A stretch of 64,000 bases of DNA from an uncultured Gammaproteobacteria bacterium (GCA_937998645.1 CALLCZ010000052.1:2724-66723), one strand, 5' to 3'; shown: positions 6,640 to 63,908, counted from the stretch's first letter. Translations and numbers: made by a program. The notes: generated by a model not told the origin, from the sequence alone.

Positions 6640-6815
6640 GAGACGCAAAGGTCGCAAAGATAAATAATGTTTGTTATTGCACACGCGTGAGAGATCTCAT
6701 TAGAAGATCTGAATAAGTATAAAGATTGCTTTGTCACAATTACATAATCATAAGAAACGACAGGTACAACAATTTTAATTTGTCTCTGCGCCCTTTGCGC
6801 CTCAGCACCTTTGCG
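6640..6815. repeat. Intergenic inverted-repeat element (GC-rich 34-bp arms flanking a ~108-bp AT-rich core), copy 1, parE-parC gap
   Basis: Left arm acgcaaaggcgcggagacgcaaaggtcgcaaaga. Right arm tctctgcgccctttgcgcctcagcacctttgcgt is its near-exact reverse complement. Confidence 0.8.
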
Positions 6816-6853
6816 TTGGATTTAAATAATAATAATCAGAGTTTTAATCAATC

Positions 6854-9124
6854 ATGACCGATCAATCTGAAATTGATTTCGAAGGTGTCGAGCGACAACC
6901 GCTCGCTGAGTTTACCGAGAAGGCGTACCTGGATTATTCCATGTACGTTATTCTCGATCGTGCATTACCCTTTATTGGTGATGGCCTCAAGCCTGTACAA
7001 CGGCGCATTGTTTATGCGATGTCAGAACTGGGGCTAAGCGCCGCATCCAAGCATAAGAAGTCAGCGCGTACGGTAGGTGACGTGCTTGGTAAATATCATC
7101 CTCATGGCGATAGCGCCTGCTACGAAGCCATGGTGTTGATGGCGCAGCCGTTCTCTTATCGCTATCCTTTGGTGGATGGTCAAGGTAACTGGGGTTCTCC
7201 CGATGACCCCAAGTCTTTTGCTGCCATGCGTTATACAGAATCGAGGCTCATGCCTTATGCAGAAGTATTGCTGCGTGAACTGGGGCAGGGTACGGTCAAC
7301 TGGGTCCCCAATTTTGACGGTTCTATGCAGGAGCCGGAAACCTTGCCTGCGCGGCTGCCAAATGTACTGCTCAATGGCGGCACGGGCATCGCCGTGGGTA
7401 TGGCAACCGATATATTGCCGCACAATCTCAATGAGGTGGCCAGTGCCTGCATACGTTTGCTGGAACAGCCAAAGTCTACTCTCGAGGAAATCTGTGAGCA
7501 CATCAAGGGGCCGGATTTTCCGACTGAAGCTGAAATCATTACGCCGCGCAAAGACATCCTGGAAACTTACCGGACAGGACATGGAAATATTCGTCAACGT
7601 GCAATCTATGAGGCAGAGGGGCATGATATCGTTATCACGGCACTGCCTTACCAGGTGTCAGGCAACAAGGTTATCGAGCAGATTGCGCAGCAAATGATTG
7701 CGAAAAAACTGCCTATGGTTGAAGACCTGCGCGATGAATCAGATCATGAGAACCCGACACGTATAGTCATTGTGCCACGCTCGAACCGTGTCAATAAAGA
7801 AGAGCTGATGCATCATCTGTTCGCAACCACTGATCTTGAGCGCAGTTATCGCGTCAACATGAACATGATCGGTATCGATGGCCGCCCTCAGGTCAAGAAC
7901 CTGCTCTCGCTGTTGAGCGAATGGATCAAGTTCCGCAGTGTGACTGTGAGACGTCGCCTGCAATGGCGTCTCGACAAGGTCAATATGCGTTTGCACATCC
8001 TTGATGGTTTGCTGATTGCATATCTGAATATTGATGAAGTCATTGCCATCATTCGTGAAAACGACAAGCCCAAGCCGGTATTGATGACACGTTTCAAGAT
8101 CAGTGATGAACAGGCTGAAGCGATTCTTGAATTGAAATTACGCCACCTGGCAAAGCTTGAGGAAATGAAGATCCGAGGCGAGCAGGATGAGCTGTCGGTG
8201 GAACGCGACAGCCTGGAATCAATTCTGGCTTCAGCACGCCGATTAAAAACTCTGATACGCAAGGAAATTCTGGAAGATGCAGAGAAATACGGCGATGAGC
8301 GCCGCTCGCCGATTATCGAACGCGGTGCAGCACAGGCCATTAACGAAGCTGCACTGATCACAAGTGAAGCGATCACTGTTGTACTGTCGAAGAAGGGCTG
8401 GGTCAGGGCTGCCAGGGGGCATGATATAGATGCGAGTAAACTGAATTACAAATCCGGTGATGAATTCCAGGCTTCAGCTACTGGCAAAAACAACCAGCTC
8501 GCCGTATTTCTGGATTCAAGCGGACGCGCCTATACACTACCTGCACATAAACTGCCATCGGCAAGAGGGCAGGGCGACCCGCTGACCAGTCACTTCACAT
8601 TAGCTGCAGGGGCCAGCTTTGTTTCGGTGATGATCGGTGATCCAGAGCAGTTTTACCTGGTGGGCAGCAGTTTTGGCTATGGTTTTGTTGTTCGCCTCGG
8701 TGACATGCACGCACGCACCAAAACCGGGAAGGCTATGTTGAATGTCGGCAAGCAGGCCAGGGCACTGCCGGCGGTACCCGTGCGCGACCTCGAAAAGGAT
8801 TATATTGTTGCGGTAACAACAGAAGGCCACATGCTGAAAACCGAACTCTCGAAATTGCCACAGATGGCGCGTGGAAAAGGTAATAAAATCATAAACATAC
8901 CTGGTGCCAGATTGAAGTCGGGTGATGAGGTGGTTACAGCATTATCGCTGATCCAGGACGGTGAAAAACTCACCGTTCATTCTGGTAAAAAATACAAGGT
9001 GATGAAGCCCGGCGAGGTAGACAGCTATTACGGTGAGCGTGGACGCCGAGGTCTTAAACTGCCGCGTGGTTACCGCAGTGTCGATCGCCTGGAAGTGCAG
9101 CAGAAAGCTGCCAGAGAAGACTAG
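6854..9124 (+). CDS. parC: DNA topoisomerase IV subunit A
   Basis: 756 aa. GyrA/ParC family N-terminus ([28 protein letters not shown]), catalytic Tyr context ([10 protein letters not shown]), C-terminal beta-pinwheel region. Immediately follows parE. Confidence 0.95.
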
Positions 9125-9154
9125 GCATCATTCGCGCAGTGAGAGATTAATTAT

Positions 9155-9262
9155 TTTCTCGCCAAGGCGCCAAGATCGCAAAGAAGTTATTAAATTAATA
9201 TTAATATCAATGCGGTGAACATGAACTCACAACACACCTTTGCGTACATTGCGCCTTGGCGA
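9155..9262. repeat. Intergenic inverted-repeat element, copy 2, downstream of parC
   Basis: tctcgccaaggcgcc ... ggcgccttggcgaga, a 14-15 bp perfect inverted repeat bracketing a ~75-bp AT-rich core. Confidence 0.8.
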
Positions 9263-9328
9263 GAGTAATATCAGTATTATGTTTATATCGGGAAAACAGT
9301 ACATATATTAATTCGCGTTCTTTGCGGA

Positions 9329-9360
9329 ACATTGAATAATCTGTTTCCACCCATATATAT
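9329..9360 (+). promoter_or_regulatory. Candidate sigma32-type heat-shock promoter upstream of htpX
   Basis: TTGAA (9332-9336), 13-nt spacer, CCACCCATATAT (9347-9358), resembling the sigma32 consensus CTTGAAA-N13-15-CCCCATNT. htpX is sigma32-dependent in E. coli. Confidence 0.35.
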
Positions 9361-9387
9361 CTGGCAAAATCATTTATGTGAGGCATT

Positions 9388-10272
9388 ATGAAACGCATCG
9401 CACTTTTTCTCGCTACCAATATCGCCGTACTGATCATTCTGAGTATCGTCCTCAGTATCCTGGGTGTCGATTCATTACTACAGGAAAACAACGTTGATCT
9501 TGATTTGCAGGCGCTGCTTATATTTTCTGCTGTGTTCGGTATGGGTGGTTCATTCATTTCGCTGGCCATGTCGAAATGGTCAGCAAAGCGCATGACTGGT
9601 GCACAGGTTATTGAACATCCGCAAAACAAAACCCAGCAATGGCTGTTGACGACAGTAAAACAGCAGGCCGAACAGGCGGGTATCGCCATGCCGGAAGTGG
9701 CTATTTATAACTCGCCGGATATCAATGCTTTTGCTACAGGTATGAGTCGTAACAAAGCACTGGTCGCTGTCACAACGGGCCTGATTAGTAACATGAAAAT
9801 GGATGAGGCCGAGGCGGTGTTGGGCCATGAAATATCGCATGTGGCTAACGGCGACATGATTACTCTCGCCTTGATACAGGGCGTTGTTAATACTTTTGTG
9901 ATTTTCTTCTCGCGTGTCGTCGGCCACGTTGTTGACCGCGTTGTCTTCAAAACAGAGCGCGGTTATGGGCCAGCGTATTACATTACCAGCATCCTTGCAC
10001 AGATCGTGTTCGGGATTCTGGCCAGCGCTATCGTAATGTATTTCTCTAGATTGCGTGAATTCCGAGCTGATGCAGGTGGCGCGAGCCTGGCTGGCAGGGA
10101 TAAGATGATTGCTGCGTTACGAAGATTGCAGTCGATCCATGAGCCATCACACCTGCCTGATCAATTGGTCGCGTTCGGTATTAATGGCGGTCTGGCTGAA
10201 GGCATGCGCAAGCTGTTCATGAGTCATCCGCCCCTGTCGCAACGAATTGCGGCTCTACAAGCTAAGAGTTAA
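9388..10272 (+). CDS. htpX: Membrane zinc metalloprotease HtpX (heat-shock protease)
   Basis: 294 aa. N-terminal TM segments. HExxH zinc motif ([12 protein letters not shown]). C-terminal conserved [13 protein letters not shown] typical of HtpX/M48 peptidases. Confidence 0.9.
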
Positions 10273-10384
10273 TCGCGATATTAGACTGATTGGTATTGTT
10301 TGGGGAAGTGGCGAGGGATGAGTGGCGAGTGGCAAGGCTGTGAACTTATCTTTTCCTCGCCACTGACTACTTATCCCTCGCCAC

Positions 10385-10420
10385 TCACGGATATAGCAGG
10401 CTAGCCCGCTATATCCGTGA
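10385..10420. terminator. Perfect 13-bp-stem palindrome at the convergent junction htpX / EAL gene (candidate bidirectional terminator)
   Basis: tcacggatatagc-aggctagccc-gctatatccgtga. Overlaps the stop codon of the minus-strand EAL gene. Preceded by nested inverted repeats at 10304-10388. Confidence 0.4.
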
Positions 10421-12536
10421 AGTCATAGTTCATTTGCGCCTGCGGTTCCTGCAGGAAGTAACCCTGGATAAAGTTCACGCCCATTCCCCATAATAAAGAC
10501 AGGCTGTTAGCGTCTTTTACGAACTGCGCAATAGTGGATTTACCAGACGCAGTAGCCTGTTCGGCAATTTTCCTGATGGTTTCCTGGCTTTGTGGATTGT
10601 CAGCAAGATCATCCATGAAGCTCTTGTCCAGTCTTATATAGTCGGCATCAACATGCTCAAGCAGCTGGAACGGGTTGGTGCCTGATCCAAAGTCATCCAG
10701 TACAAAACCACACTTGATTTTCTTCAGGCTGTTGGCCAGGTCTTTGGCATTTTTCAGGTTGGTTACCGCAACCGATTCCTTGACGACGAAAATTAACGAG
10801 TTCTCCGGCAGGCTCTTGTCCTTGATCTGGAAATCGACCCATTCGATCAGTGTCTCGTCCTTGATTGATGCAGCTGACAGTTTGATGAAAAAGCGTGTTT
10901 TTTTGCCTTTCTGATTGCGTTTGACTACATCCTGTATCGCTCTATACAGTACCCAGCGATCGATTGCCGTAGACATGCCTATGCGTTCAGCGGCAGGCAG
11001 AAATTCATGTGGCATGATCATGTCCTTGCCATCTTCCCCGAACATGCGTACGAATACTTCATAGCGCTCATCGGGGTCGCCATGAAGGCTTATAATTGGT
11101 TGGTAGAAGAGCGCAAACCTGTCATCCTTGAGTGCCTGGGTCAACTGTTCTTTGAAAAGCGAATCAACTTCATGCCTTGTCAGTTCGCCTTCTTCCGGGA
11201 CGTAGATCTTTATCTGGTTCGTGCCCGCTTGTTCAGCTTCATCAGCAACCTTGTCAGCACGTCGCAGAACTCCATTGGTTTCAGGTGAGTTCTTGTCAAT
11301 CAGTGTAATGCCAATACAGCATGTTGTATTGATTTTTTCATTACCTATATTTACGTCCAGATCCATGATCGCAGTCTGGATTTCTTCTGCATATGCTTGT
11401 GCTGAGTCATTATCCTGATTATAGGCAATAATCGAATAACTGGGATTCATAAATGCAAGTGTATCGTTTTTATGGATCACTTGTTTCAATGTGCTTGCGA
11501 CTTCAACAAAGAACTTGTCGATATCAACTGCGCCTATACGGTTCTTTATGTCTGCAAAATTGTCCAGTCTGATCTCGATTAGTGCGGCAGTGCTCTGTTC
11601 TGATTCACACAGGGATATCGTTTCTTCAAGTTTGTCCAGGCAGTACTGCCGGTTATACAAGCCGGTAAGCTGGTCCTTCTGGCTGAGCTCTTTAAGTCTC
11701 TCTTCGAGTGCTTCGGTATTTGCACCTTCCTGCCGAATGATGACCTGTATGCATGGTTCGCCTTCAATGCTTGCAGGTGAGAACTCCATTTCCCCCTCAA
11801 ATTTTGTACCATCAGGCTTTTGCAGATGGGTCTTATGGACTTCTGTTGTCGCGTCTTTTTGCAAATAGTCGCGCAGAAATGTTTTGAAGCTGTCTCTGTT
11901 ATCGGTTGCAACCATATCCAGTATCGGCATGCTCTCCAGTTCATCGGAGTGCTCTAGTCCAAACAAGTCCAGGTATGAAGCGTTGGAATATACATGCATA
12001 CCTTCATGCACGTAGGCAATAGCATCACGTGAACTGTCGAGTAAGGATGCGCAGCGACGCTCAGACTCGCCCATCGCGGTTTCGAGTTTGTGCATTTGTC
12101 GCCAGCTGCGTAGTGCACAAAGTTCGCGGTTTATTACCATGCGAAGGTGATCCATGTTGTCATATGAAGACAGGTCAGCGGCTCCTTCTCTCATGACTTT
12201 AACAGTCGATTCCTCGTTGCCATTTTTTTGAACAGCAATCACGGGAACGGGTGTGCCGTTCAAATTTTGCCTGATACAGTCACAAACCTCTTTCAGTGAG
12301 ATCAGATCCATTCCTTGTGTGTATAAAACCATATCTGGCTCTTTCTTGCGAATTGCCTCGGACAGGTCCTCTGTGTCTTCAACTCGTGTGGACCGTGCTG
12401 CATAGCCTTCATTACGTAGTGTGCTGACGATTTTTTCTTCTGTATCAAAAGAATCGTCAATCACCACGAGATTAATTTTCTTCTCGTCCACAAATGTTTC
12501 CCTTGGTGCCTCGGCGGCTAATGCATTAATTGACAT
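10401..12536 (-). CDS. Response-regulator receiver + PAS + degenerate GGDEF + EAL-domain protein (likely c-di-GMP phosphodiesterase)
   Basis: 711 aa. N-terminal CheY-like REC (LVVIDDSFDTEEKIVSTL...MVLYTQG). PAS-like middle. GGDEF-like domain lacking the GG(D/E)EF signature. Intact EAL signatures (FALFYQPI, YEVFVRM, LDDFGSG, FIQGYF). Confidence 0.8.
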   Translation of the reverse strand: MSINALAAEAPRETFVDEKKINLVVIDDSFDTEEKIVSTLRNEGYAARSTRVEDTEDLSEAIRKKEPDMVLYTQGMDLISLKEVCDCIRQNLNGTPVPVIAVQKNGNEESTVKVMREGAADLSSYDNMDHLRMVINRELCALRSWRQMHKLETAMGESERRCASLLDSSRDAIAYVHEGMHVYSNASYLDLFGLEHSDELESMPILDMVATDNRDSFKTFLRDYLQKDATTEVHKTHLQKPDGTKFEGEMEFSPASIEGEPCIQVIIRQEGANTEALEERLKELSQKDQLTGLYNRQYCLDKLEETISLCESEQSTAALIEIRLDNFADIKNRIGAVDIDKFFVEVASTLKQVIHKNDTLAFMNPSYSIIAYNQDNDSAQAYAEEIQTAIMDLDVNIGNEKINTTCCIGITLIDKNSPETNGVLRRADKVADEAEQAGTNQIKIYVPEEGELTRHEVDSLFKEQLTQALKDDRFALFYQPIISLHGDPDERYEVFVRMFGEDGKDMIMPHEFLPAAERIGMSTAIDRWVLYRAIQDVVKRNQKGKKTRFFIKLSAASIKDETLIEWVDFQIKDKSLPENSLIFVVKESVAVTNLKNAKDLANSLKKIKCGFVLDDFGSGTNPFQLLEHVDADYIRLDKSFMDDLADNPQSQETIRKIAEQATASGKSTIAQFVKDANSLSLLWGMGVNFIQGYFLQEPQAQMNYDFTDIAG

Positions 12537-12551
12537 AGTTTTTACTTGTTA

Positions 12552-14426: not shown

Positions 14427-14541
14427 TGTCAGTCAGTTCACTATCCAGCCCTGTAGGCCTGCCTGATCTCAATCTTGTTTTATAAAACAAGGAGATAGTT
14501 ATGTTTTTATTGTTTGTAACTGAAATACTGATAATTGTAGC

Positions 14542-15546: not shown

Positions 15547-15618
15547 ATGTACTGATTCGGCGTGTGCTCTAAACGGTATTCGGGTAAGATTACGCCCTGA
15601 ATTTAACAGGTTAAAAGC

Positions 15619-17165: not shown

Positions 17166-17383
17166 CAACTTCTCAAGCAGGCAAGCTATATTTAGTCTGT
17201 ATATCAAATGATGAATCGGGGCTAAAGTGTAAGGTTTTCCGACTGACGAATGCACTTGAAATCATTATTAAAAACAGGCATTCTGAAAAGGACACGTATC
17301 GCAATGAGGCGATATATTCCTCTGCGCTTGGCCTCTAGCATACAAATTCATTCTGTAAATGAACATGAAGGGTAACTTCAGGC

Positions 17384-37321: not shown

Positions 37322-37954
37322 ATGCAGGCATTTACCAGACATAGTGGAATCGTGGCGCCTCTCGACCGGCCTAATGTCGATACTGACGCGATTATTCCAA
37401 AACAGTATCTGAAATCGATTAAACGCAGCGGTTTTGGTCCGAATGCATTCGATGACTGGCGCTACCTGGATGAAGGCGGACCGGACATCGATGATTCAAC
37501 ACGCCGCATTAATCCGGAATTCATTCTCAATCAGCAGCCGTATGACAGGGCGACGGTCCTGCTTGCGCGGGAAAATTTCGGCTGCGGCTCATCACGTGAG
37601 CATGCGGTGTGGGCACTGACAGACTTCGGTTTTCGTGCCGTTATTGCCCCGGGTTTCGCTGATATATTTTTTAATAACAGTTTCAAGAACGGTTTGCTGC
37701 CTATCACCCTTGACAGCGCTGTTGTCGATAGTCTTTTCGGCAAGGTTCAACAAAACAGGGGTATTGAATTTACGATTGATCTCGAGTCACAGACTGTAAC
37801 TGCGGGTGAAGATGTTTATGCTTTTGAGATTGATGAATTCAAAAAATATTGTATGTTGAACGGGCTTGATGATATCGGCCTGACTTTACAGCATGCGGAT
37901 CAGATCACAGCGTACGAACAGGAAAGAAAACAGAAGTTACCATGGTTGTTCTGA
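37322..37954 (+). CDS. leuD: 3-isopropylmalate dehydratase small subunit
   Basis: 210 aa. Aconitase swivel domain. Immediately follows leuC. Confidence 0.95.
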
Positions 37955-38056
37955 TGGTGTGTAAAAAATAATAAGGCTCTTCACTGAATCGAGCAGGTAA
38001 ACTTCAGATGTTAGCCACAGCGGTCACGGAGAACACAGAGGTATTTAGTTTTGTAG

Positions 38057-38116
38057 GAGCGGCTTCAGCCGCGAACAATCTGTCAGATCGCGATGAATTC
38101 GCGGCTGAAGCCGCTA
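38057..38116. other. Strong hairpin (18-bp perfect stem, 22-nt loop) downstream of leuD
   Basis: agcggcttcagccgcgaa-caatctgtcagatcgcgatgaa-ttcgcggctgaagccgct. It lies inside the 80-codon ORF 38008-38250, which is probably spurious. Confidence 0.5.
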
Positions 38117-38246
38117 CGTTTACTGCGGACCAGATCAAAACAACAAAACAAGCATTTGTCTCTGTGCCTCTGTGGCAAAATTATTTATCGTATCAACCCA
38201 CCAGGTCTGGTGAAGACACAGTAATAAAAAATTCTCAGGTGCATAA

Positions 38247-38810
38247 ATGAACTATTCGAAACCCGGATTACACATTGTCCGGCAAATTGTTTTGCTGTCA
38301 GCAGTATTGGTGGCAACAGCATGCTCGAACAAGGCATCAACATTTGTACCCGCAGCGCAGGATGCAGACAAGGGTTCGGTTGTTTACATCTATCGCCCAT
38401 CCAGTTCAACAAACTTCATGATGTCGCCGAAAGTGGTCATCGACGGCAATGAAAAATTCAAGATCGGAAGCGGTGATTATCGCTATGTATACCTTCAATC
38501 CGGCAGGCACACGCTAGGCCTGAACCCGACCGATCAGTACATGACGGATGCTGCGCTGGAGCTGACAGTCGAAACAGATGAAAGCTATTACCTGCGTGTT
38601 AACACCTCACTGAAGTTCGAGCCGGACAGTATGAATACACGCAGGTTCTGGTTTGAACAGGTCACAGAAAAACAGGCGCTCGAGGAAATCGGCGATACCG
38701 GGTATGCGGGGCCGATACAGCAGACCATAGCAGACCCGGCCGAAGAGGCTGGAACCGGTGATGGTTTTTCCGTCGATAAAACACGGGACCCGTTTTCGGG
38801 TAAAGATTAA
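38247..38810 (+). CDS. Putative lipoprotein (unknown function)
   Basis: 187 aa. Lipobox LVATAC after a signal peptide (MNYSKPGLHIVRQIVLLSAVLVATACS). Lies between leuD and leuB. Confidence 0.6.
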   Translation: MNYSKPGLHIVRQIVLLSAVLVATACSNKASTFVPAAQDADKGSVVYIYRPSSSTNFMMSPKVVIDGNEKFKIGSGDYRYVYLQSGRHTLGLNPTDQYMTDAALELTVETDESYYLRVNTSLKFEPDSMNTRRFWFEQVTEKQALEEIGDTGYAGPIQQTIADPAEEAGTGDGFSVDKTRDPFSGKD

Positions 38811-38832
38811 ATACCAGAAACTTGCAGTTTTT

Positions 38833-39030
38833 GTTTCTCGCCAAGGCGCAAAGAGCGCAAAGGTGTTTTGGGTAAGAGCAGATTAAACATTTAAGTTCTC
38901 TGCGGCCTCAGCGACTCTGCGAGAAAAAAATAAATATAATCTCGCGGAGGCGCAGGGGTCGCAGAGGTATCTGGAATAAGAACAAACCAGACATAGAGGT
39001 TCTTGGCGGCCTTGGCGCCTTTGCGAGAGT
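38833..39030. repeat. Two tandem intergenic inverted-repeat elements (copies 3a and 3b) in the lipoprotein-leuB gap
   Basis: 3a: ttctcgccaaggcgcaaagagcgcaaagg ... cctcagcgactctgcgagaa. 3b: ctcgcggaggcgcaggggtcgcagagg ... cttggcggccttggcgcctttgcgagag. Same architecture and the same (a/c)aggcgc / gcgca(a/g)agg word family as the other copies. Confidence 0.7.
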
Positions 39031-39210
39031 AAATTTCTAACGCATGATTACAGGACCAGGTCTGATCGTTCGAACGAAATATAAGCGTTTGAGTTGATAT
39101 GAGATATTGATTTTTCCGCTGTTACAGCTCAGCGCAAATGACGGGAATAATAGCGTATAATTCCGCCAGCCGTTTTCAGCGGTTTTATGCATAAATCATC
39201 AGGTACATGT

Positions 39211-40287
39211 ATGAGTCAAAAGATTGCAGTCTTGCCGGGAGACGGCATCGGCATCGAGATCGTTGCTGAAGCTGCCAGGGTGCTGAACCATCTCAAGAAT
39301 GACGGTCTCGATATAGAAATGATTGAGGCCCCGGTCGGAGGCGCCGGTTATGATGCTGCCGGCAAGCCGTTACCTGATGAAACCCTGGCCCTGGTAAAAG
39401 AGTCTGATGCAATTCTGCTGGGTGCCGTAGGTGGTCCGCAGTATGAAGCTTTGCCGCGCGAGCTGCGCCCCGAAAGAGGCCTGCTTGGCCTGCGTTCCGA
39501 ACTGGGCCTGTTTGCTAACTTGCGCCCTGCAATCCTCTACCCGCAACTTGCAGACGCGTCTTCACTCAAGCCGGATGTCGTAGCCGGGCTGGATATCATG
39601 ATCGTGCGCGAACTCACCGGCGGTATTTATTTTGGCGAACCGCGTGGTATACGCGAGAAAGCCAACGGTGAACGCGAAGGCTTCAATACCCTGGTTTACA
39701 GTGAATCCGAAGTTGACCGTATCGCCCGGGTTGCTTTTGACATCGCAATGAAGCGTGGCAAGCGACTGTGCTCGGTGGACAAGGCGAATGTGCTGGAAGT
39801 TTCGGAACTCTGGCGCGAGGTGGTGATCAAGGCCGGTAGCGATTATCCCCAGGTCGAGCTCAGTCATATGTATGTTGATAACGCAGCAATGCAGCTGGTG
39901 AAGTGGCCCAAACAGTTTGATGTCATGGTAACAAAGAACATGTTTGGTGATATTCTTTCAGATGCTGCGGCCATGCTCACGGGTTCGATTGGTATGTTGC
40001 CTTCGGCTTCGCTGGACGCGAACAGCAAGGGCATGTACGAGCCAATTCACGGCTCAGCGCCCGATATTGCCGGCAAGGGAGTGGCAAACCCGCTGGCTAC
40101 AATTTTATCGGTGGCTATGATGCTGCGTTACAGCCTGGATTATGCGACACTGGCTGATAAAATCGAACATGCTGTTGGCAGTGTCCTTGATAAGGGGCTG
40201 CGCACGCCGGATATTATGGCCGAGGGTTGCAGGGAAGTGGGTACAGTTGAAATGGGTGAGGCGGTTCTGGGTGAGTTGTCTGCCTGA
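39211..40287 (+). CDS. leuB: 3-isopropylmalate dehydrogenase
   Basis: Starts [18 protein letters not shown] (24 nt inside the longest ORF). Isocitrate/isopropylmalate dehydrogenase signatures ([15 protein letters not shown]...[23 protein letters not shown]). Confidence 0.95.
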
Positions 40288-44624: not shown

Positions 44625-44870
44625 TGGTTTCGCCTTGCTGGCGAGTTACTTTTCTTTGCATGCCCAAAGAAAAGTAACCAAAAGAAAAGGCATCCCGGGC
44701 GCTCGTGCTACGCATACCCTCAGCCATCTTCACTGCCAACGGGTCGTCTTGACTCGCCGTCCGGGCTCGACAAGACTCGATTGACCGTCCCTGGTCAATC
44801 GACCCTACCAGCGAAGCTGTCTTCGGCGAGCTTGACGGGAACAGGCAGTCTCCCCACGAGGTTGTCTGAA
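44625..44870 (+). repeat. Structured ~245-bp intergenic element, copy A (fimV-truA gap)
   Basis: Shares the conserved blocks tggtttcgcc, ggcgagttacttttc, aaaagtaaccaaaagaa, cttgactcgccgtccgggctcgaca(a/g)gact and gtccct with the reverse complement of 45000-45240. Contains a perfect hairpin gttacttttctttg/caaagaaaagtaac at 44645-44678. Confidence 0.75.
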
Positions 44871-44999: not shown

Positions 45000-45240
45000 T
45001 AAGCTTGACGTGCTTTATTTCTCCCGTGAAGTTTGCCGAGGCATTCGGCTTTGGTAGGGAAAATCCGACAGGGACGTCGGATTTAGTCCTGTCGAGCCCG
45101 GACGGCGAGTCAGGACGGCCCGTAGGCAAAGCCGAATGCCTCGGGAACCCGAAGGGCAAACGTTTCGGGGCGGCGTTCTTTTGGTTACTTTTCTGTCGCT
45201 GTTGACAGAAAAGTAACTCGCCCAACAGGGCGAAACCAGA
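45000..45240 (-). repeat. Structured ~245-bp intergenic element, copy B (inverted relative to copy A)
   Basis: Reverse complement aligns block by block with 44625-44870. The hairpin gttacttttctgtc/gacagaaaagtaac (45184-45217) carries compensatory changes relative to copy A. Confidence 0.75.
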
Positions 45241-52478: not shown

Positions 52479-52481
52479 TCC

Positions 52482-53984: not shown

Positions 53985-54101
53985 CGCCGGTTATCCGCTT
54001 ATCCAGCAACACGCGCTTTCATTTCAGGTAGAACAAACAGATTCAAATATCACTGAATAGCTGCTACTGTTAATACATCGCACTACGCATGTATTTAATA
54101 A

Positions 54102-54569: not shown

Positions 54570-54575
54570 TTCATC

Positions 54576-56216
54576 ATGGATTTGCAGCAAAGCATCCGGC
54601 ATAACCTCGAATTTCTCCAGACCGAACTGGTCAGCCGTCTTGAGAGCATCAAGACCTACCTGGATGATACCTCGCCTGAGGCGGCAGAAAGCATATTCAA
54701 ACGCAGCGGCTATATATCCAACCTGAAGCAACGCATCCATGATGCCTGCTACAGGTATATAGCGGAAACAGATAACTCGGATACGCCTGAAGTTCTTCGT
54801 GTCCGCGCCATCGATATCATTGCAACCGAACTCGAAAACATTGCCGGACTGGGTGAGGAGTTTGTGCAGCAGTCGATCTACCTTGAAGATCCGGGAAGAA
54901 AGAATTTTCCAAGGCTGTTATCACAGATTGATCTTGTCATCGAAGCCGTCGCCATGGTGCACACTGCGCTGTTCGAGAACGACACGCAGGTCGCTATAAA
55001 GATCGGTCGCACCCAGGGAAGGCTGGAACGGAAGTTCAGAAAACTGCTGAAAAAGAATGCCGCATCGCTGCGCGATACCTCGGATGCGGAGAACCTGCTC
55101 AGTATCTCCTTTACTGCCTACTCCATAGAACGCATGGGAGACAGCCTGCTCACGATCAGCGAAGCCATTATTTCAAGTAACCTCGGCATGGTGATGGACA
55201 GCGCCCGGTTCCAGGCGATGCAGGATATCAGCAAGATCACTGACAGCGCGAACACAGAGGAACTGCATATCCAGAATGTTGCCGAGACGCGCTCGGGCGC
55301 GGCGATATCGAGTATACAATTGCCTGACGGTGAGAGTGGCAGTTACCCCGCCATTTTCAAGCAGGGACATACCAAGAAGCTCAAGCAGGAGCGTAAAGGT
55401 GTCGAGAGCTGGCACGATGTGTTCCCGGGCCTGGCGCCGCAGATCCTCTCATGGAAAAAGAAAGGCAAGTCGGCTTCGCTGTTGATCGAGCACCTGTCAG
55501 GCAACACCTTTGAGCAGATTGTGCTGAACGAATCGACCGAAACACTCAATGACGTATTGCAGGAATTGAAAAATACGCTGCATAGCGTGTGGACTGAAAC
55601 ACTGGCTGACAAACCGGTATCTGCGGAATTCATGCGACAGCTCGACAAACGAATCAGCGACGTGTATGCGGTGCACCCGGAGTTTCACGACAGCTTGCAG
55701 GTCATATGCGGGCATAAAGTACCGTCTTTTGACAGCCTTGCAGAAAAAGCGGCCGAAGTCGAAAGCGGACTGCAGGCGCCGTTCTCTGTTTACATTCACG
55801 GTGATTTCAACATAGACAATCTCATCTATGATTCTGATAACAGGCAGATACGCTACGTGGACCTGCATCGTTCGCGCTACATGGATTACGTGCAGGATGT
55901 ATCTGTGTTCATGGTGTCGAATTACCGCCTGCAGGTGCTTGACCCGGTGGTGCGTCAACGCATTGCCGCAGTGATATACAATTTCTATCGCATTGCTGCA
56001 GAGTTCGCAGCAAACAACAAAGACAGTACTTTCGAATTTCGCCTGGCCTTCGGTCTGGTTCGCTCACTGGCAACCTCCACCCGGTTCATACTCGACCGCG
56101 ATCTCGCCCGCGGTATGTTCCTGCGTGCCCGCTACCTGCTGGAGCAGATCGTCAGCCTCGAGCCTGCAGCCTATGAAAACTACCGTGTTCCAGTAGAGGA
56201 GATATTTTGTGGTTAG
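54576..56216 (+). CDS. PhoU-domain / protein-kinase-like (APH/choline-kinase fold) phosphotransferase fusion protein
   Basis: 546 aa. N-terminal ~240 aa with PhoU-like helical repeats, including SIERMGDSLLTISEAI (compare the PhoU ERIGDHATNIAE motif). C-terminal kinase-like domain with Brenner motif HGDFNIDNLIY and downstream YVDLHRS...D. Confidence 0.65.
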   Translation: MDLQQSIRHNLEFLQTELVSRLESIKTYLDDTSPEAAESIFKRSGYISNLKQRIHDACYRYIAETDNSDTPEVLRVRAIDIIATELENIAGLGEEFVQQSIYLEDPGRKNFPRLLSQIDLVIEAVAMVHTALFENDTQVAIKIGRTQGRLERKFRKLLKKNAASLRDTSDAENLLSISFTAYSIERMGDSLLTISEAIISSNLGMVMDSARFQAMQDISKITDSANTEELHIQNVAETRSGAAISSIQLPDGESGSYPAIFKQGHTKKLKQERKGVESWHDVFPGLAPQILSWKKKGKSASLLIEHLSGNTFEQIVLNESTETLNDVLQELKNTLHSVWTETLADKPVSAEFMRQLDKRISDVYAVHPEFHDSLQVICGHKVPSFDSLAEKAAEVESGLQAPFSVYIHGDFNIDNLIYDSDNRQIRYVDLHRSRYMDYVQDVSVFMVSNYRLQVLDPVVRQRIAAVIYNFYRIAAEFAANNKDSTFEFRLAFGLVRSLATSTRFILDRDLARGMFLRARYLLEQIVSLEPAAYENYRVPVEEIFCG

Positions 56217-56457
56217 CCCGCATTTCTCACCAGGCCGCTACGTAACTGGAGTAACCGTATGAATATAAAATCAGAAGATCGATTTCAATCAAATACAGTC
56301 TGTTTAGTGGGGCGCTATTTCGTTCCATGCGCATCTGTAGCGTCCCTGAGCACGCATCTTCCCTCAAACCATAGCTATGGCTATGCTTTTCAGTCCAGAC
56401 GCGCACTCAGAAACACTACAGATGCACCTGAATCCGAAATCCTGGTGAGATATGCGG
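56217..56457 (+). promoter_or_regulatory. Repeated leader element 1: 18-bp inverted repeat spanning the whole intergenic region and overlapping the SD and start codon of the ATP-grasp gene
   Basis: Left arm cccgcatttctcaccagg (56217-56234, right after the upstream stop). Right arm cctggtgagatatgcggg (56440-56457) contains GGUGAGA (SD-like) and the ATG at 56452. Complementary in 17 of 18 positions. Confidence 0.55.
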
Positions 56458-57342
56458 GCTGATCCAAGAATCGGTGTTGTCGGCCTGCCTGGCAAATGGT
56501 CAACGGAAACGCTGGCGGATGCTGTCGAAGCCAGCACAGGGATGCGGCTTGTTATCGATATGAGCGATGTTGCGCTTGATCTCGACGGGCGCAAACTTCT
56601 GTATGGTAAACATGATTTGTGTGAGCTCGATGCTATCATCGTGAAAAAAATCAGCCGTGAATACAGCCCCAACTCGATCGATCGTCTCGAACTGCTGCGC
56701 GTGGCCGAGGCAAAGGGTGTGCGCGTATTCAGCCCGGCACTCAGCATGCTGCGCCTGATTGACAGGCTGAGTTGTACCACAACAATGGCAAATGCCGGGA
56801 TTCCCATGCCACCGACATCGATAACTGAAGATATCGGCCAGGCGGAAGAGGCAGTACGACAGTACGGCAGTGCTGTGTTCAAGCCGTTGTTTTCCACCAA
56901 GGCAAGGGGAATGATTGTTGTTGATGCAGCTGATCCGGAGATAGAGCGTATCGAGCAGATAAAGGATTTTCATCAGCACAATCCAATGATGTATATCCAG
57001 AAAAAAATGGAATTACCCGGCCAGGACCTCGGCCTGGTTTTTCTTGGCGGTGAATACCTGGGCGCCTATGCCAGGGTGTCGGAAGGCAGCTCATGGAATA
57101 CCACGATACTTCATGGTGGCCGTTATGCAGCGGCAGAACCGGATGCCAGCTGGGTCGAAATTGCACAGCGTGCGCAGGGCCTGTTTAATATGGATTACAC
57201 CACGGTGGACATGGCGGAAACTGAAGATGGACCTGTTGTGTTCGAGGTTTCCGCATTCGGCGGCTTTCGTGGTGCGAAAGAGGGTCTGGGTATAAACGTT
57301 GCGGAACGCTATGTTGACTACGTACTGAGCAAACTTGACTGA
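56452..57342 (+). CDS. ATP-grasp ligase (RimK/alpha-L-glutamate-ligase-like)
   Basis: 296 aa. ATP-grasp fold (VFKPLFSTKARGMIVV, MMYIQKKMELPGQDLGLVFLGGEYLGAYAR). Starts with ATGCGGGCT inside a repeated leader element. Confidence 0.75.
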   Translation: MRADPRIGVVGLPGKWSTETLADAVEASTGMRLVIDMSDVALDLDGRKLLYGKHDLCELDAIIVKKISREYSPNSIDRLELLRVAEAKGVRVFSPALSMLRLIDRLSCTTTMANAGIPMPPTSITEDIGQAEEAVRQYGSAVFKPLFSTKARGMIVVDAADPEIERIEQIKDFHQHNPMMYIQKKMELPGQDLGLVFLGGEYLGAYARVSEGSSWNTTILHGGRYAAAEPDASWVEIAQRAQGLFNMDYTTVDMAETEDGPVVFEVSAFGGFRGAKEGLGINVAERYVDYVLSKLD

Positions 57343-57343
57343 T

Positions 57344-58435: not shown

Positions 58436-58480
58436 ATCTGAAGAAAATGACGGCAGGGCAAACGAGCAAGCGGGTATACA

Positions 58481-59452: not shown

Positions 59453-59465
59453 ACACATGGATAAC

Positions 59466-59610
59466 CCGCGTTTCTCACCAGGCGGCGTAGTAACTGATGA
59501 GACATAGTCCATTGGAGTAAAGCTGAAATGATGAAAAATACCGTGTGTTATTCAAGCGTGCCTATCACGGTTCCTGCGTCTGCTCCCGTGATCCTGGTGA
59601 GAAATGCGGG
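59466..59610 (+). promoter_or_regulatory. Repeated leader element 2: same inverted repeat in front of the histidine-phosphatase gene
   Basis: Left arm cccgcgtttctcaccagg (59466-59483). Right arm cctggtgagaaatgcggg (59593-59610) includes the ATG at 59604. The single difference gives a G-U pair. Adjacent flanks (ggcgtagtaactg; gatcctggtgag) are also shared with element 1. Confidence 0.55.
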
Positions 59611-60308
59611 CTAGAACCATCGCAGCCCTGATTCGCCATGGCGAATACCAGCAGCAGGCGGATACACCGAGTGCGCACCAGCCTTATGCACTTACCGCGC
59701 AGGCTAAAGCCGACGTGCACGACGAAGTTGACAGCTTTTCCGCTTTGCTCGATAAGCATGCATTGGAAATAGCGCACCGGGTCGATAGTTCGAACATGCT
59801 GCGGGCCTGGCAGACGGCGATGATCTATGTCGAAAAACTGTATCAGCATGAAATGCCAAGCAAACTGATTGACAGTTATGATGCGCTTGCAGAGCGCGGA
59901 CTCGGTGCTGTTGCCAACATGACCATCCAGCAGATAGAAAAAGTCATTGTTGAGGATCCACGTTATCAAGAACCGCCGCAGAACTGGAAATCAGACAGCC
60001 ATTACTGCCTGCCGTTTCAGGGTGCAGAGTCGCTGATGCAGGCAGGTGAGAGAGTGGCTGCACATCTGCAACAGCAAATGCATAAGCTGCGTGCTGAAGC
60101 CAGTGTGGATACGGTAAAACTGTTTATTGGACATGGCGCAGCGTTTCGTCACGCGGCTTTTCACCTGGGCATTCTTGAATTCGAACAACTGGCACAATTC
60201 AGTATGTTCCACGCGCGACCTGTACTGATCGAATATCTCGATGATGGCAGCTGGCGTCATATCGGTGGTGACTGGAAAATTCGTAACGCAGTAAACGGGC
60301 TGGATTGA
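59604..60308 (+). CDS. Histidine phosphatase (phosphoglycerate-mutase-like) family protein
   Basis: 234 aa. N-terminal RHGE (AALIRHGEY) and second His motif (LFIGHGAAFRHA). Starts ATGCGGGCT inside the second copy of the repeated leader element. Confidence 0.7.
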   Translation: MRARTIAALIRHGEYQQQADTPSAHQPYALTAQAKADVHDEVDSFSALLDKHALEIAHRVDSSNMLRAWQTAMIYVEKLYQHEMPSKLIDSYDALAERGLGAVANMTIQQIEKVIVEDPRYQEPPQNWKSDSHYCLPFQGAESLMQAGERVAAHLQQQMHKLRAEASVDTVKLFIGHGAAFRHAAFHLGILEFEQLAQFSMFHARPVLIEYLDDGSWRHIGGDWKIRNAVNGLD

Positions 60309-61645
60309 TCGTGAGTCATCTTCACAAGCTGGTGCCGGACTACCAGGGTATTGAACACACAGGTATTCAACTGCCTGTTGAAACCCAGAAGTGGCTTCAT
60401 GGAAGGAAACGCTCGCTGCAGTCGAGAAGGCTGAACCATCAGCAAACTGCGCAACAGCTATCGGACCTGCTTGCAGAGCATGAATGGACCTGGCCGAGCA
60501 GAACAGTCTATTTTTTAAGTGATCTGCATGCCGATGTCGATGCGCTGACGGCTTCTTTGATTGCATCCGGCGGAGTTAAGGCAAGCGGGAAAAAACACCG
60601 TCATCTAAAGCTCACCAAGCAGGGAAAACAGGCGCAGTTTTTAATTGGCGGCGACTGCTTCGACAAGGGTCCGAGCAATCTTGCGTTGTTGAGAACACTG
60701 AACAGGCTGCATGATCGTGGTGCACGCATGCGTATACTCGCGGGCAATCATGATATCCGGGTCATGCTGGGCATGCGCAACGTCAACCGTAAAAATGATC
60801 CAGGATGCGAGCACTTCTTTATTCGCATGGGCGCAAAAGCGGTGCCCTTCCTCAAGGAAATAAATGACAACTATCTTGCAGGTGCGCACAGCCTGAAGGA
60901 TGTGCCTGGAAAACGAAAATGTGAACAGCGTCTTTATCCGCCCGAGCAATGGTTTGACGAGTTTCCTTTACAGGTGGCAGATTTATTACCGCAGAAGATC
61001 ATCGATAAGGAACTGCGGCGTGTTGTAGAGAAAAGAGAAGACTTCGAGGCGCAATGCGAGAACGTGGGACTTTCTACCCGAAGGGCCTATGCTGCTGCAT
61101 TACAATGGCAGCGATTGTTTCTGCGCGATAAAGGCGAGTTCAGCTGGTTTTTCAGGCGCATGCGTCTTGCCATGAGCAATGGATCATTTCTGTTCGTGCA
61201 TGCAGGGCTGGATAACAACATCGCGCACCTGATCAATCAGAAAGGTATTAAACGGGTCAACCGGGAATTCAACAAACAACTGCAGGGTAATCCCATGCGG
61301 TTTTATTATGGTCCGCTGGCCAACGCGATACGCACTAAATATCGCCCGGGTGACCGGCAGCTGACAAAAAAAGGCGCGCAGCAGGTCCATGAAAACGATA
61401 TACATGTCATTATTCATGGGCACAAGGCGATGCGTAACGGGCAGCGTATCTCGGTTCGAAAGACCATCGTCAACTTTGAATGCGATGTCACACTGGATCG
61501 GCATTCGCGGCGCAGAGACGGTCTCGAGGGATCCGGCGCCGGTGTTACTATCATCAGGCCGGATAAAAAAATCATCGGTATCAGTACCGATCACCCTTAT
61601 GTGAAAGTATTCGATCCGGGTGATTTGCTACAAAACGGAGCTTAA
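60305..61645 (+). CDS. PPP-family metallophosphoesterase (Ser/Thr-phosphatase / ApaH-like)
   Basis: 446 aa. Motifs YFLSDLHAD (GDxHG variant), LIGGDCFDKGP (GDxxDRG), ILAGNHD (GNHE), IIHGH. Confidence 0.7.
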   Translation: MIVSHLHKLVPDYQGIEHTGIQLPVETQKWLHGRKRSLQSRRLNHQQTAQQLSDLLAEHEWTWPSRTVYFLSDLHADVDALTASLIASGGVKASGKKHRHLKLTKQGKQAQFLIGGDCFDKGPSNLALLRTLNRLHDRGARMRILAGNHDIRVMLGMRNVNRKNDPGCEHFFIRMGAKAVPFLKEINDNYLAGAHSLKDVPGKRKCEQRLYPPEQWFDEFPLQVADLLPQKIIDKELRRVVEKREDFEAQCENVGLSTRRAYAAALQWQRLFLRDKGEFSWFFRRMRLAMSNGSFLFVHAGLDNNIAHLINQKGIKRVNREFNKQLQGNPMRFYYGPLANAIRTKYRPGDRQLTKKGAQQVHENDIHVIIHGHKAMRNGQRISVRKTIVNFECDVTLDRHSRRRDGLEGSGAGVTIIRPDKKIIGISTDHPYVKVFDPGDLLQNGA

Positions 61646-61646
61646 T

Positions 61647-61919
61647 ATGAAAAATGGCGACAACTCATTCTGTCACGAATCACTGCAGGACAGGGAAACG
61701 ATCGCGGATATCCTGTCATCCCTGCAGCAGGGTCTGAGTAATGGCACATTGAAGTTCAGCGATGAAGACAACGAAATCACACTGAAGCCGTCAGGCCTGT
61801 TGAACCTTACCGTAAAGGCTTCAAGCGATAGCGACCACAACGTGCTTGACGTGCGTGTTTCCTGGACAAGTAAAAAGTCCAAAAAATTGAAAAAGGAACT
61901 CAGGATATCGGTGGACTGA
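61647..61919 (+). CDS. Small amphi-Trp-domain-like protein (tentative)
   Basis: About 90 aa. SD GGAG 7 nt upstream; start immediately follows the phosphatase stop. Sequence MKNGDNSFCHESLQDRETIADILSSLQQGLSNGTLKFSDEDNEITLKPSGLLNLTVKASSDSDHNVLDVRVSWTSKKSKKLKK resembles the amphi-Trp domain family as I remember it. Confidence 0.5.
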   Translation: MKNGDNSFCHESLQDRETIADILSSLQQGLSNGTLKFSDEDNEITLKPSGLLNLTVKASSDSDHNVLDVRVSWTSKKSKKLKKELRISVD

Positions 61920-62057
61920 ATATCGCGTTTCTCCCCTGGTGCAAAACTCAGCAGGCGTATGTGGCAAGACCGATGCTGTATCAGCAAAAACATTCATCGT
62001 GTTGTATGGTTGCTGATGTGATATTAACTATTCCGAATAAACAGGGACAATAAAGCC

Positions 62058-62540
62058 ATGTATTCCATCCGCGTCAATGTCGGCGAACAGAAGCTCTATC
62101 TGTTGAACGAGCAGGGTGTTGCTGAACGTGAATATCCTGTATCCACTTCAAAGTATGGCGTTGGCAATGAAAACGGCAGTGAGAAAACGCCACTCGGCCT
62201 GCACCGTATCAAAGACAAGATTGGCGGCTCGATGCCGATCAACATGGTCATGGTTGGCCGTGAACCCAAAGGTCTGCTGCAGGATTGCATTAACGAGGGT
62301 ATGGAACTGCCAGATGATGTGATTACCAGCAGGATCCTGTGGCTGGAAGGCATGGAGCCGGGAAGAAACCAGGGCGGCTATGTAGACACGTACAACCGTT
62401 ACATATACATTCATGGCACAAGTGAAGAAAACAAAATCGGTACACCGGCCTCGATTGGCTGTATACGAATGATGAATGAAGATGTTGTTGAACTGTATCG
62501 TCTGGTAGACACAGGAACAGAAGTATTAATAGAAGAATGA
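62058..62540 (+). CDS. L,D-transpeptidase (YkuD-domain) protein without recognisable signal peptide
   Basis: 160 aa. Catalytic motif HGTSEENKIGTPASIGCIRMMNEDV (H...C). N-terminus MYSIRVNVGEQKLYLLNEQG is not signal-like. Confidence 0.75.
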   Translation: MYSIRVNVGEQKLYLLNEQGVAEREYPVSTSKYGVGNENGSEKTPLGLHRIKDKIGGSMPINMVMVGREPKGLLQDCINEGMELPDDVITSRILWLEGMEPGRNQGGYVDTYNRYIYIHGTSEENKIGTPASIGCIRMMNEDVVELYRLVDTGTEVLIEE

Positions 62541-62541
62541 A

Positions 62542-63732
62542 ATGACTGATTCAAAAAAAATAAATCCGCAGGAATACGGTTTCGCTACCCGTGCAGTTCG
62601 CGCCGGCCAGGAACGCACCAGCGAGGGTGAAAACAGCGAACCGATATTCCCTACATCCAGTTATGTATTCGCTTCGGCAGCGGAAGCAGCAGCGCGGTTC
62701 TCGGGTGAGCAGCCGGGCAATATATATTCCCGCTTCACCAATCCGACGGTGCGTACCTTTGAAGAACGGCTGGCCGCAATGGAAGGCGCCGAGTGTTGCG
62801 TTGCCACGGCCTCCGGCATGTCGGCTATTACGGCCACCTGTATTGGTCTGCTCAGGACAGGTGATCACATTGTTTCTTCGCGCAGTATATTTGGCACTAC
62901 AACCGTGTTGTTCGAGAACTTCCTGGGCAAGCTCGGTATTGCAACCAGCTTTGTTGAACTATCAGACCTGGCTGCGTGGGAGCAGGCGATCAAGCCCGAA
63001 ACTAAATTACTGTTTCTGGAGACGCCGTCAAACCCGTTGACTGAACTGGTCGATATTGCAGCGCTGGCCGAAATTGCACACAGGCATGGCTGCCTGCTGG
63101 TGGTTGATAACTGCTTCTGTACGCCGGCATTGCAACAGCCCATTGCACTCGGCGCCGATATCATTATTCATTCTGCAACCAAGTATATCGACGGCCAGGG
63201 ACGCTGTATGGGTGGCGCTGTTTGTGGAACACATGATGTTGTCGGTGACGCAGTCTATAGTTTCCTGCGCACCGCAGGACCGACCATGAGTGCATTCAAT
63301 GCATGGGTTTTTATCAAGGGGCTGGAGACGCTGAAACTGCGCATGCAGGCGCACAGCACAAATGCACTGGCCCTGGCGCAATGGCTGGAACAACAGGCGG
63401 CGGTTGAGCGTGTGTATTACCCGGGCCTGGAAAGCCATCCCCAGCATGCACTGGCAAAGCAGCAGCAAAGCGGTTTTGGCGGTATCGTTGCTTTTGAACT
63501 CAAGGGTGGCAAGGATGCGGGCTGGAACCTGATTGATGCCACGCGCATGATCTCGATCACGGCCAACCTGGGTGATACCAAAACCATGATCACGCATCCT
63601 GCGACAACCACGCACGGAAGATTGACACCGGAACAACGCCAGGATGCCGGTATCTCGGATAGCCTGATTCGTGTTGCCGTCGGACTCGAAGACATGGATG
63701 ACATCAAGGCTGACCTTGCGCGTGGTATGTGA
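62542..63732 (+). CDS. metZ: O-succinylhomoserine sulfhydrylase / cystathionine gamma-synthase family PLP enzyme
   Basis: 396 aa. Cys/Met-metabolism PLP-dependent fold, with PLP-Lys context HSATKYIDGQG. Sits next to purF as in the Pseudomonas purF-metZ arrangement. The metZ versus metB assignment is tentative. Confidence 0.8.
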   Translation: MTDSKKINPQEYGFATRAVRAGQERTSEGENSEPIFPTSSYVFASAAEAAARFSGEQPGNIYSRFTNPTVRTFEERLAAMEGAECCVATASGMSAITATCIGLLRTGDHIVSSRSIFGTTTVLFENFLGKLGIATSFVELSDLAAWEQAIKPETKLLFLETPSNPLTELVDIAALAEIAHRHGCLLVVDNCFCTPALQQPIALGADIIIHSATKYIDGQGRCMGGAVCGTHDVVGDAVYSFLRTAGPTMSAFNAWVFIKGLETLKLRMQAHSTNALALAQWLEQQAAVERVYYPGLESHPQHALAKQQQSGFGGIVAFELKGGKDAGWNLIDATRMISITANLGDTKTMITHPATTTHGRLTPEQRQDAGISDSLIRVAVGLEDMDDIKADLARGM

Positions 63733-63773
63733 GTGATTTAGCTTCTGGGGATCCATAAAAAAACTTTTTTTTC

Positions 63774-63908
63774 ACCGCAGAGGCGCAGAGGCGCAGAGTA
63801 TGTTTGTGTATAACCTTATACCCAAAGACCTTGCTTGCATTGTTACTTGTTATCAATGTAATCAGATTTTAAATATTGTATTTTCCTCTGCGCCTCTGCG
63901 GTGAAAAT
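63774..63908. repeat. Intergenic inverted-repeat element, copy 4, downstream of metZ
   Basis: ttttcaccgcagaggcgcagaggcgcagag ... ctctgcgcctctgcggtgaaaa. The 22-bp perfect inverted repeat brackets a ~90-bp AT-rich core. Confidence 0.8.

Follow-up and report, generated by a model that had tools for sequence, protein, structure and literature searches.

The window studied here is a stretch of 64,000 nucleotides (nt) from an uncultured Gammaproteobacteria bacterium (GCA_937998645.1 CALLCZ010000052.1:2724-66723), in which five inverted-repeat elements, here called A to E, lie beside parE, parC, an M48 peptidase gene, a DUF2846 gene, leuB and a metZ-like gene. All five (5 elements in 64 kb) occupy intergenic spacers, as the original prediction, made by a model from this sequence alone, had proposed. 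We find that the five loci are true copies of a family resembling the repetitive extragenic palindromes (REPs) and bacterial interspersed mosaic elements (BIMEs), with a distinctive build in which two facing arms, each a polar array of three to four tandem 8-9-nt units of consensus CGCNRRGG (CGC-N-R-R-G-G), co-vary across an AT-rich core. The prediction had placed the five copies near the positions below, with the start of A at 6640, inside what proves to be the left arm (the true start is 6626), and it had read the arms as loose GC-rich words where we find ordered tandem CGCNRRGG arrays. The elements and their parts are:

Element A, 6626-6817, in the parE-parC spacer.
A 5' arm, 6626-6660, plus strand: AA followed by CGCAAAGG CGCGGAGA CGCAAAGGT CGCAAAG; four units, spacing 8, 8, 9.
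A core, 6661-6782: 122 nt, 30% GC, alignable to the closest relatives only.
A 3' arm, 6783-6817, plus strand: reverse complement of AA CGCAAAGG TGCTGAGG CGCAAAGGG CGCAGAG; 30/35 match to the 5' arm.
Element B, 9157-9264, in the parC-M48 spacer.
B 5' arm, 9157-9183, plus strand: TCT followed by CGCCAAGG CGCCAAGAT CGCAAAG.
B core, 9184-9237: 54 nt, 28% GC.
B 3' arm, 9238-9264, plus strand: 23/27 match to the B 5' arm.
Element C, 38836-38924, between the DUF2846 gene and leuB; with D it forms a double element.
Element D, 38940-39028, between the DUF2846 gene and leuB.
Outer 5' arm of the double element, F(C), 38836-38863, plus strand: TCT CGCCAAGG CGCAAAGAG CGCAAAGG; its best partner is 39001-39028.
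First internal loop of the double element (core C), 38864-38896: direct homologue of core D, 20/33.
5' arm of the inner hairpin, R(C), 38897-38924, plus strand: pairs with 38940-38967.
Loop of the inner hairpin, 38925-38939: AT-rich, 15 nt.
3' arm of the inner hairpin, F(D), 38940-38967, plus strand: TCT CGCGGAGG CGCAGGGGT CGCAGAGG.
Second internal loop of the double element (core D), 38968-39000.
Outer 3' arm of the double element, R(D), 39001-39028, plus strand.
Element E, 63769-63907, adjoining the metZ-like gene.
E 5' arm, 63769-63798, plus strand: TTTTCAC followed by CGCAGAGG CGCAGAGG CGCAGAG.
E core, 63799-63884: about 28% GC.
E 3' arm, 63885-63907, plus strand: two units followed by GTGAAAA; a 23-nt perfect repeat with 63769-63791.

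The family stands out clearly from chance. A two-unit pattern matched the window six times against 0.03 expected, with none of 100 shuffles reaching six; unit clusters occur at the five loci only, plus one two-unit coding match at 5869 inside parE, and an arm profile (nhmmer) run on the window recovered exactly ten arms. The arms are 57-75% GC and the cores, which evolve fast, 28-36%, the latter resembling other spacers of this genome of about 50% GC. All elements fold far more stably than their shuffles (z -6.3 to -9.5).

Arm anatomy is strongly polar. Counted inward from the outer boundary, units are spaced 8, (8), 9 and then 10-11 nt apart, and the boundary itself is T-rich, reading TTCAC, TCT or AA; in arms aligned on the first unit, TTCAC is the commonest boundary across phyla, the 4-mers preceding that unit are TCAC, CTCA, GAAC, TTCT, CTCT and TTAA, and the CGC and G positions are invariant while the rest of the unit varies. 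The (8,9) spacing occurred 32 times in arms where the search pattern did not force it, (9,8) was not among the 15 commonest spacing patterns, and fourth units come after 9-11 nt. In the window and its relatives, a set unbiased by the search pattern, the wider spacing is always on the inner side. T is almost absent from the 5' arm, and hence A from the 3' arm, whichever strand is read; the flanks are T-rich 5' of the stem and A-rich (GTGAA) 3' of it.

No two copies in the window are alike: unit words, the number of units and the core vary among all five. The arms had been predicted to be near-perfect complements in every copy, which holds for A, B and E and does not hold for C and D, whose own arms match at 19/28 positions each. 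Likewise, the cores are generally unrelated between copies, as predicted, with the exception of the homologous cores of C and D.

Within a copy the arms co-vary, the crosswise-pairing C and D excepted, and here the prediction is borne out. A lineage test gave an own-arm complementarity of 14.2, compared with 8.7 against arms of other elements and 8.3 when those elements belonged to the same genome (permutation p<1e-4). In a set of 63 elements drawn from many genomes, 88.5% of cells were paired versus 80.6% in shuffles, and double-sided changes numbered 235 versus 114 +/- 11; neither value was reached in any of 500 shuffles, and slid controls collapse. At the locus L214 (L-numbers are labels of compared loci from other genomes), where ParC is 98% identical, the first unit of both arms carries a 1-nt insertion, a compensated indel. 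Arms of related genomes diverge faster than the flanks yet remain paired. Additionally, the variable triplet is the same for 57% of units within an arm versus 42% between elements of one locus, showing that units are partly homogenised within arms. Strain-level contigs match the window except for one single-nucleotide change in an arm: position 6807, in the right arm of A, is A in the window and G in six near-identical metagenome contigs. The window's A turns a CGC unit into TGC, a strain-level change with no mirror in the left arm.

In the double element formed by C and D, crosswise pairing, F(C) with R(D) and R(C) with F(D), reaches 22/28 in both cases versus 19/28 for each own-arm pair, and the minimum-energy fold is one nested double hairpin. 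Because the two cores are nonetheless direct homologues (20/33 identical, shuffle p<5e-5), we conclude that a tandem duplication took place and that the arms then evolved toward the structurally available partner. Two further doubles flank the M48 gene at L128, and for the three copies the crosswise and own-arm scores are 22/22 versus 19/19, 24/22 versus 19/19 and 22/22 versus 21/17, with the nested fold present in all three. They have in common the idiosyncratic units CTCAGCG and CGCAGGG, and their arms are about 85-90% alike as judged by eye in the alignment; their cores are conserved solely between the two L128 copies. Partner choice in doubles follows structure, not history. The window has this double at leuB, and L128 has it to either side of M48; whole elements therefore reach new spacers, and the nested fold is the conserved feature.

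At window 37322-40287, the gene lying between leuD and leuB, beside which the double sits, belongs to the DUF2846 family (Pfam E=5e-11). Pseudomonas also has an extra gene in this place, so the separation of leuCD from leuB need not stem from the repeats. The leuD-DUF2846 spacer holds a perfect 18-nt inverted repeat at 38058-38115, AGCGGCTTCAGCCGCGAA / TTCGCGGCTGAAGCCGCT, which is not of the octamer type.

Comparison of orthologous sites in ten related Thiotrichales genomes (ParC 86-98% identical; the window comes from a gammaproteobacterium of Thiotrichales type, and its ParC is 89% identical to that of the metagenome-assembled genome (MAG) CP070838.1) shows that copies undergo turnover, tandem duplication, decay to remnants, loss and dispersal. 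The parE-parC spacer carries a full element in 9 of the 10 genomes, L213 retaining only a GCGCCTTTGCGGTGAA remnant, and these elements vary in sub-type (AA-type with four units, or C-CGCAGAG type with three), in unit words and in core. The parC-M48 spacer ranges from no recognisable element (L129, where it is 82 nt long) to three in tandem (L128), and at L210, L211 and L213 it holds sister-type repeats instead. L128 carries double and triple arrays, and has six elements within 22 kb. Next to element B in the window lies what is probably a remnant of an older element:

Probable remnant 3' arm, 9312-9327, plus strand: TTCGCGTTCTTTGCGG, apparently from an older sister-type element with CGCGAAT/CGCAAAA units, complete at L210 and L211.

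This remnant abuts a GGA(C)A(A)TTGAA motif (window 9312-9340) conserved 5' of the M48 gene in most relatives examined, present as a variant at L212 and not seen at L213 or L129; it is possibly the -35 region of an M48 promoter.

Carrier genomes also contain sister families of the same build with other unit words, including CACGAAG/CACAGAG (L213) and, elsewhere, CACGGAT, CACAGAT, GGCGAAT and others. In the window, the convergent M48/GGDEF spacer (10307-10385) has an inverted repeat of the same architecture its arms made up of GTGGCGAG-type units in tandem. In relatives, this spacer carries GGCTAGG/GACTAGG (L214), GAACGAG/TGACAAG (L210) or GGTGCGAG/GGACGAG (L129) units, a CGCARAG double element (L128) or a different inverted-repeat family (L126). 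A second inverted-repeat family occurs in the window at 56204-56471 and 59462-59613, with termini of about 22 nt (TTAGCCCGCATTTCTCACCAGG ... CCTGGTGAGAAATGCGGGCTAA) and cores of 206 and 110 nt; its pattern gave 4 matches versus 0.06 expected, and it is also found at L126 (about 6650-6890) and as a solo half at L128.

The distribution of the CGCNRRGG elements crosses phyla but is patchy. A three-unit pattern run against 185,579 species genomes matched at least 119 stretches; the matches listed hold 304 arms, with 70 forward-reverse (F..R) against 13 R..F pairs and cores of 2-294 nt. Copies beyond the window, on which the original proposal of a family depended, were thus found both in relatives and in at least ten phyla, where inverted pairs agree with it in unit, boundary and polarity. 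Such pairs are present in Chloroflexota, Planctomycetota, Acidobacteriota, Bacteroidota, Nitrospirota, Verrucomicrobiota, Desulfobacterota and Myxococcota, in Firmicutes (one Heliomicrobium MAG) and in Alpha-, Beta- and Gammaproteobacteria, and isolate carriers include Holophaga foetida DSM 6591, Chloroflexus islandicus and Sorangium So ce513. A scan of viral contigs gave at least 74 pairs, many of them at conserved places in alphaproteobacterial gene transfer agent (GTA) or HK97-type phage clusters. Among more distant gammaproteobacterial parC loci (relatives at 63-72% identity among the matches listed), elements were present in one organism of 80 loci (392 kb). Neither 5,426 E. coli genomes nor 50,697 cultured phage records matched the pattern, and 72,556 plasmid records gave one match; 50 kb of an annotated Sphingobium plasmid contain one element only.

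Several carrier loci show arrangements of their own. L108 1389-1909 (a Dehalococcoidia MAG) contains five direct repeats, each about 120 nt long and each with a forward CGCCAAG-unit arm beside a parS-like palindrome, TGTTTCACGTGAAAC, without facing arms. We considered a link to parS, as the TTCAC|GTGAA boundaries also resemble its half-sites, and dismissed the idea for want of conservation at positions -8 to -6. L124 1300-2160 (an Alloprevotella MAG) is an 860-nt non-coding, BIME-like mosaic in which half-arms of several unit families (CACGAAT, CACGGAA/CACAGAA, CGCAGAC, CGCAAAG and AGTAGTR) are parted by CCGCAYGG-like joints. In a contig from the viral collection (L216 2772-3051), a CGCAGAG-unit arm pair surrounds a 245-nt core that reads as a small open reading frame (ORF) of about 70-75 codons, starting 8 nt past the 5' arm; arms can therefore bracket a whole small gene. 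The idea that L216/L230 is a concatemer or small replicon was dropped, as no long direct repeats were found.

The repeat family is apparently uncatalogued. Ten arm 15-mers, looked for as text strings, were not found in the papers searched, and a literature match to CGCAAAGG in a ParB paper proved to be a primer. Searched at the gathering score, Rfam yielded only the TwoAYGGAY motif in the window, away from the elements, and nothing in 25 further loci; a permissive search added sub-threshold miRNA hairpins only. The TwoAYGGAY matches lie at 45022-45157 (plus strand, 59.3 bits) and 44739-44807 (minus strand, 44.2 bits; gathering score 43) and are unrelated to the elements.

We suggest, with a probability of roughly 0.5, that the elements are REP/BIME-like hairpin repeats kept symmetric by slippage and template switching, and that they likely serve as structural punctuation in DNA or RNA. 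The arms form stems of 25-35 bp, on this view both in the single-stranded DNA of replication forks and in transcripts that cross the element, and adjacent elements nest into a double hairpin. Slipped-strand duplication among units may keep the arms repetitive, and template switching within the palindrome (quasipalindrome correction) may keep them complementary without selection at each site; in E. coli, template-switch correction is an established process at imperfect inverted repeats (PMC7202029). Under slippage and template switching, an arm would co-evolve with the partner it is placed to pair with while the core drifts. New copies probably arise by tandem duplication in place, with an occasional copy arriving in a different spacer. 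By analogy with E. coli REPs, the RNA stem could act as punctuation between cistrons, either as an exonuclease barrier or as a processing site.

Several observations weigh against this proposal, in part or as a whole. Slippage and template switching leave the cross-phylum recurrence of unit, boundary, polarity and spacing unexplained; this recurrence is the main argument for a putative sequence-specific partner, with horizontal spread as the other candidate. Copies within a genome are also not near-identical, unlike recently active REP doublets (REPINs) or miniature inverted-repeat transposable elements (MITEs). The RNA component in particular was compared with gene orientation in 112 element-bearing spacers of other genomes and 366 background spacers, using crude ORF calls with elements masked. 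Co-directional, convergent and divergent spacers numbered 73, 19 and 20 with an element and 214, 73 and 79 in the background, no significant difference given these crude calls (p=0.45). Divergent spacers were not depleted (20/112 versus 79/366, p=0.43, again on crude gene calls), which counts against a purely 3'-end RNA role and removes the predicted placement mostly 3' of genes as a general rule. In a weak strand test the sense strand was the more stable in 47 elements versus 28 (p=0.037), and G.U versus A.C pairs, at 124 to 110, did not differ significantly. With orientation and strand tests weak to null, there is no strong mark of strand-specific RNA selection, and the symmetry fits a DNA-level process or use of both strands. 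Within co-directional spacers, elements start a median of 25 nt past the stop codon and end 38 nt before the next start.

It is possible, if less than probable, that the elements are instead non-autonomous mobile DNA of REPIN or MITE type, with the octamer arrays acting as binding sites in terminal inverted repeats for a putative transposase or HUH enzyme that has itself spread horizontally; the elements would then be selfish and any effect on the host incidental. Such mobility would accommodate a distribution that is patchy across phyla and locally dense in carrier genomes, the outside-to-inside polarity of the arms (F..R pairs predominating among the matches listed, spacing 8 then 9), inter-arm content ranging from 2 nt to a whole small ORF, the same double element at non-homologous spacers in two genomes, and the lack of a spacer-orientation preference. 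However, target-site duplications (k=2-9, 148 elements) did not exceed a permuted null except for single matches at k=3 and k=5, and near-identical copies are missing from each genome, the five in the window included. No transposase gene adjoins any copy examined, the recurrent neighbours being only GTA/HK97-type portal and capsid genes, and no REP-associated tyrosine transposase (RAYT) gene is among these recurrent neighbours, to which that search extended. The 8-nt units are short relative to known transposase sites, and orthologous copies have been kept at the same spacer over about 10% ParC divergence. We regard as unlikely, though consequential if true, that the elements are the footprint of a horizontally spreading cross-phylum system, in which a putative enzyme or protein recognises polar CGCNRRGG arrays and CAC-type sister units and creates, copies or maintains facing arrays round arbitrary DNA. 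The recurrence that slippage and template switching leave unexplained favours such a system.

Strict unit periodicity and polarity, invariant CGC and G amid variable unit positions, and the lack of strand or orientation bias could also arise from duplex-DNA binding-site arrays for a protein that reads tandem 8-9-bp units and organises or insulates transcription units. Ribbon-helix-helix proteins, which bind uninterrupted 7-9-bp repeats cooperatively (PMC3074162), nucleoid-associated proteins, or gyrase as at BIME-2 are candidates. We consider this improbable, as covariation at variable positions, the compensated indel and the crosswise doubles indicate intrastrand pairing, and no candidate protein of such broad distribution is known. 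Ordinary Rho-independent terminators or independent small-RNA genes that merely look alike are very improbable: stable stems soon after stop codons in co-directional spacers and AT-rich cores speak for them, but terminator scans of the elements detected no stem followed by a T-run, the T-rich flank lies upstream and the A-rich one downstream, opposite to a terminator, and 25-35-bp stems with loops of up to 120 nt lie far beyond terminator geometry. These results lend no support to the long-stem and ordinary terminators raised by the original prediction. Promoter scans found no promoter-like sites at the elements, no Rfam family covers them, and unit, boundary and polarity are common to copies and phyla. 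Least credible of all are integron attC-like recombination sites bounding cassettes such as the DUF2846 gene. Complementarity is indeed kept as sequence varies, the central region varies in length, arms sometimes bracket a gene and a few copies end AAC...GTT (A; L026). Most copies, however, have no RYYYAAC/GTTRRRY, their boundaries being TTCAC, TCT, CTCA or TTCG; they stand singly between housekeeping genes (parE, parC, M48, leuB, metZ-like) rather than in integrase-linked cassette arrays, and their arms are highly constrained in sequence (CGC, G), unlike attC.

These findings have implications beyond the window. REP-type repeats are normally lineage-specific, and a hairpin repeat with one unit, polarity and boundary shared by ten or more phyla would be out of the ordinary. 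Such recurrence would either mark a widely shared, unrecognised protein or enzyme partner, or mean that closely similar structured DNA is able to spread among bacteria or to arise in them anew. If the horizontally spreading system exists, it would amount to a new class of REP-like DNA, mobile or self-renewing, common to Chloroflexota, Planctomycetota, Acidobacteriota, Bacteroidota, Proteobacteria and others. Additionally, the elements offer a natural test bed for whether inverted-repeat complementarity is maintained by selection or by template switching, and for the influence that the choice of partner within a nested hairpin has on sequence evolution; as carriers include cultivable isolates, experiments are feasible. 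Elements inside housekeeping operons (parE-parC, leu genes) and GTA clusters likely affect transcript processing. They may also break metagenome assemblies, and could serve as typing markers.

Among known systems, several resemble these elements in part. MITEs (Correia, enterobacterial repetitive intergenic consensus (ERIC), Nezha and Coxiella elements) likewise have terminal inverted repeats round a short non-coding segment, lie in intergenic DNA and show nested and adjacent insertions; unlike them, the elements described here have neither target-site duplication nor a conserved interior, and no related insertion sequence was identified for them. The short tandemly repeated repetitive (STRR) sequences and tandem heptamers of cyanobacteria and the Beggiatoaceae TAACTGA repeats (PMC4679880) are also 7-9-nt tandem intergenic units patchily distributed across phyla, which suggests their horizontal transfer, and their function is unresolved (PMC4679880). 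Those are essentially direct repeats, as in the orange Guaymas Beggiatoa (BOGUAY) genome with 169 direct sets versus 1 inverted set (PMC4679880) and in the Nostoc heptamer papers, which treat direct repeats, whereas the arrays here always form inverted pairs that face each other and whose arms co-vary. Integron attC sites likewise keep structure over sequence and vary in length at the centre, and differ in core sites, cassette context and arm constraint as set out above.

Closer still are REPINs, REP doublets mobilised by RAYT (PMC3116915), which are likewise two inverted arms forming one long hairpin round a less conserved spacer, with arm pairing maintained and copies scattered in extragenic space. 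REPIN populations are mostly near-identical master copies with a RAYT gene flanked by repeats (PMC3116915), unlike the family here, where every copy differs and spacers run from 2 to about 300 nt. REPs proper are 20-40-nt imperfect palindromes with a GTAG or CGTC head and a lineage-specific motif (PMC3733652, PMC12306157); a survey found low REP motif similarity across taxa, and REP roles in mRNA stability and translation have been reviewed (PMC12306157). With the REPs and BIMEs of Enterobacteria and Pseudomonas, the present elements have in common that they are extragenic, multi-copy and hairpin-forming, occur without target duplication, stand singly or in tandem clusters of alternating orientation (here C and D, and the triple at L128) and often lie soon past stop codons, and to this extent the original REP/BIME-like assignment stands. 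It does not extend to the arms, which are non-palindromic and, being T-free or A-free, cannot self-pair, so that pairing is arm to arm only; to the heads, which are TTCAC or TCT rather than GTAG or CGTC; or to the species-specificity of REPs, as these polar tandem-octamer arrays have a unit that recurs in at least ten phyla. Thus, while the elements are not REPs in the formal sense, REP/BIME is the nearest known kind, and we describe here an element of that kind whose arms are of unusual design and whose distribution is unusually wide.

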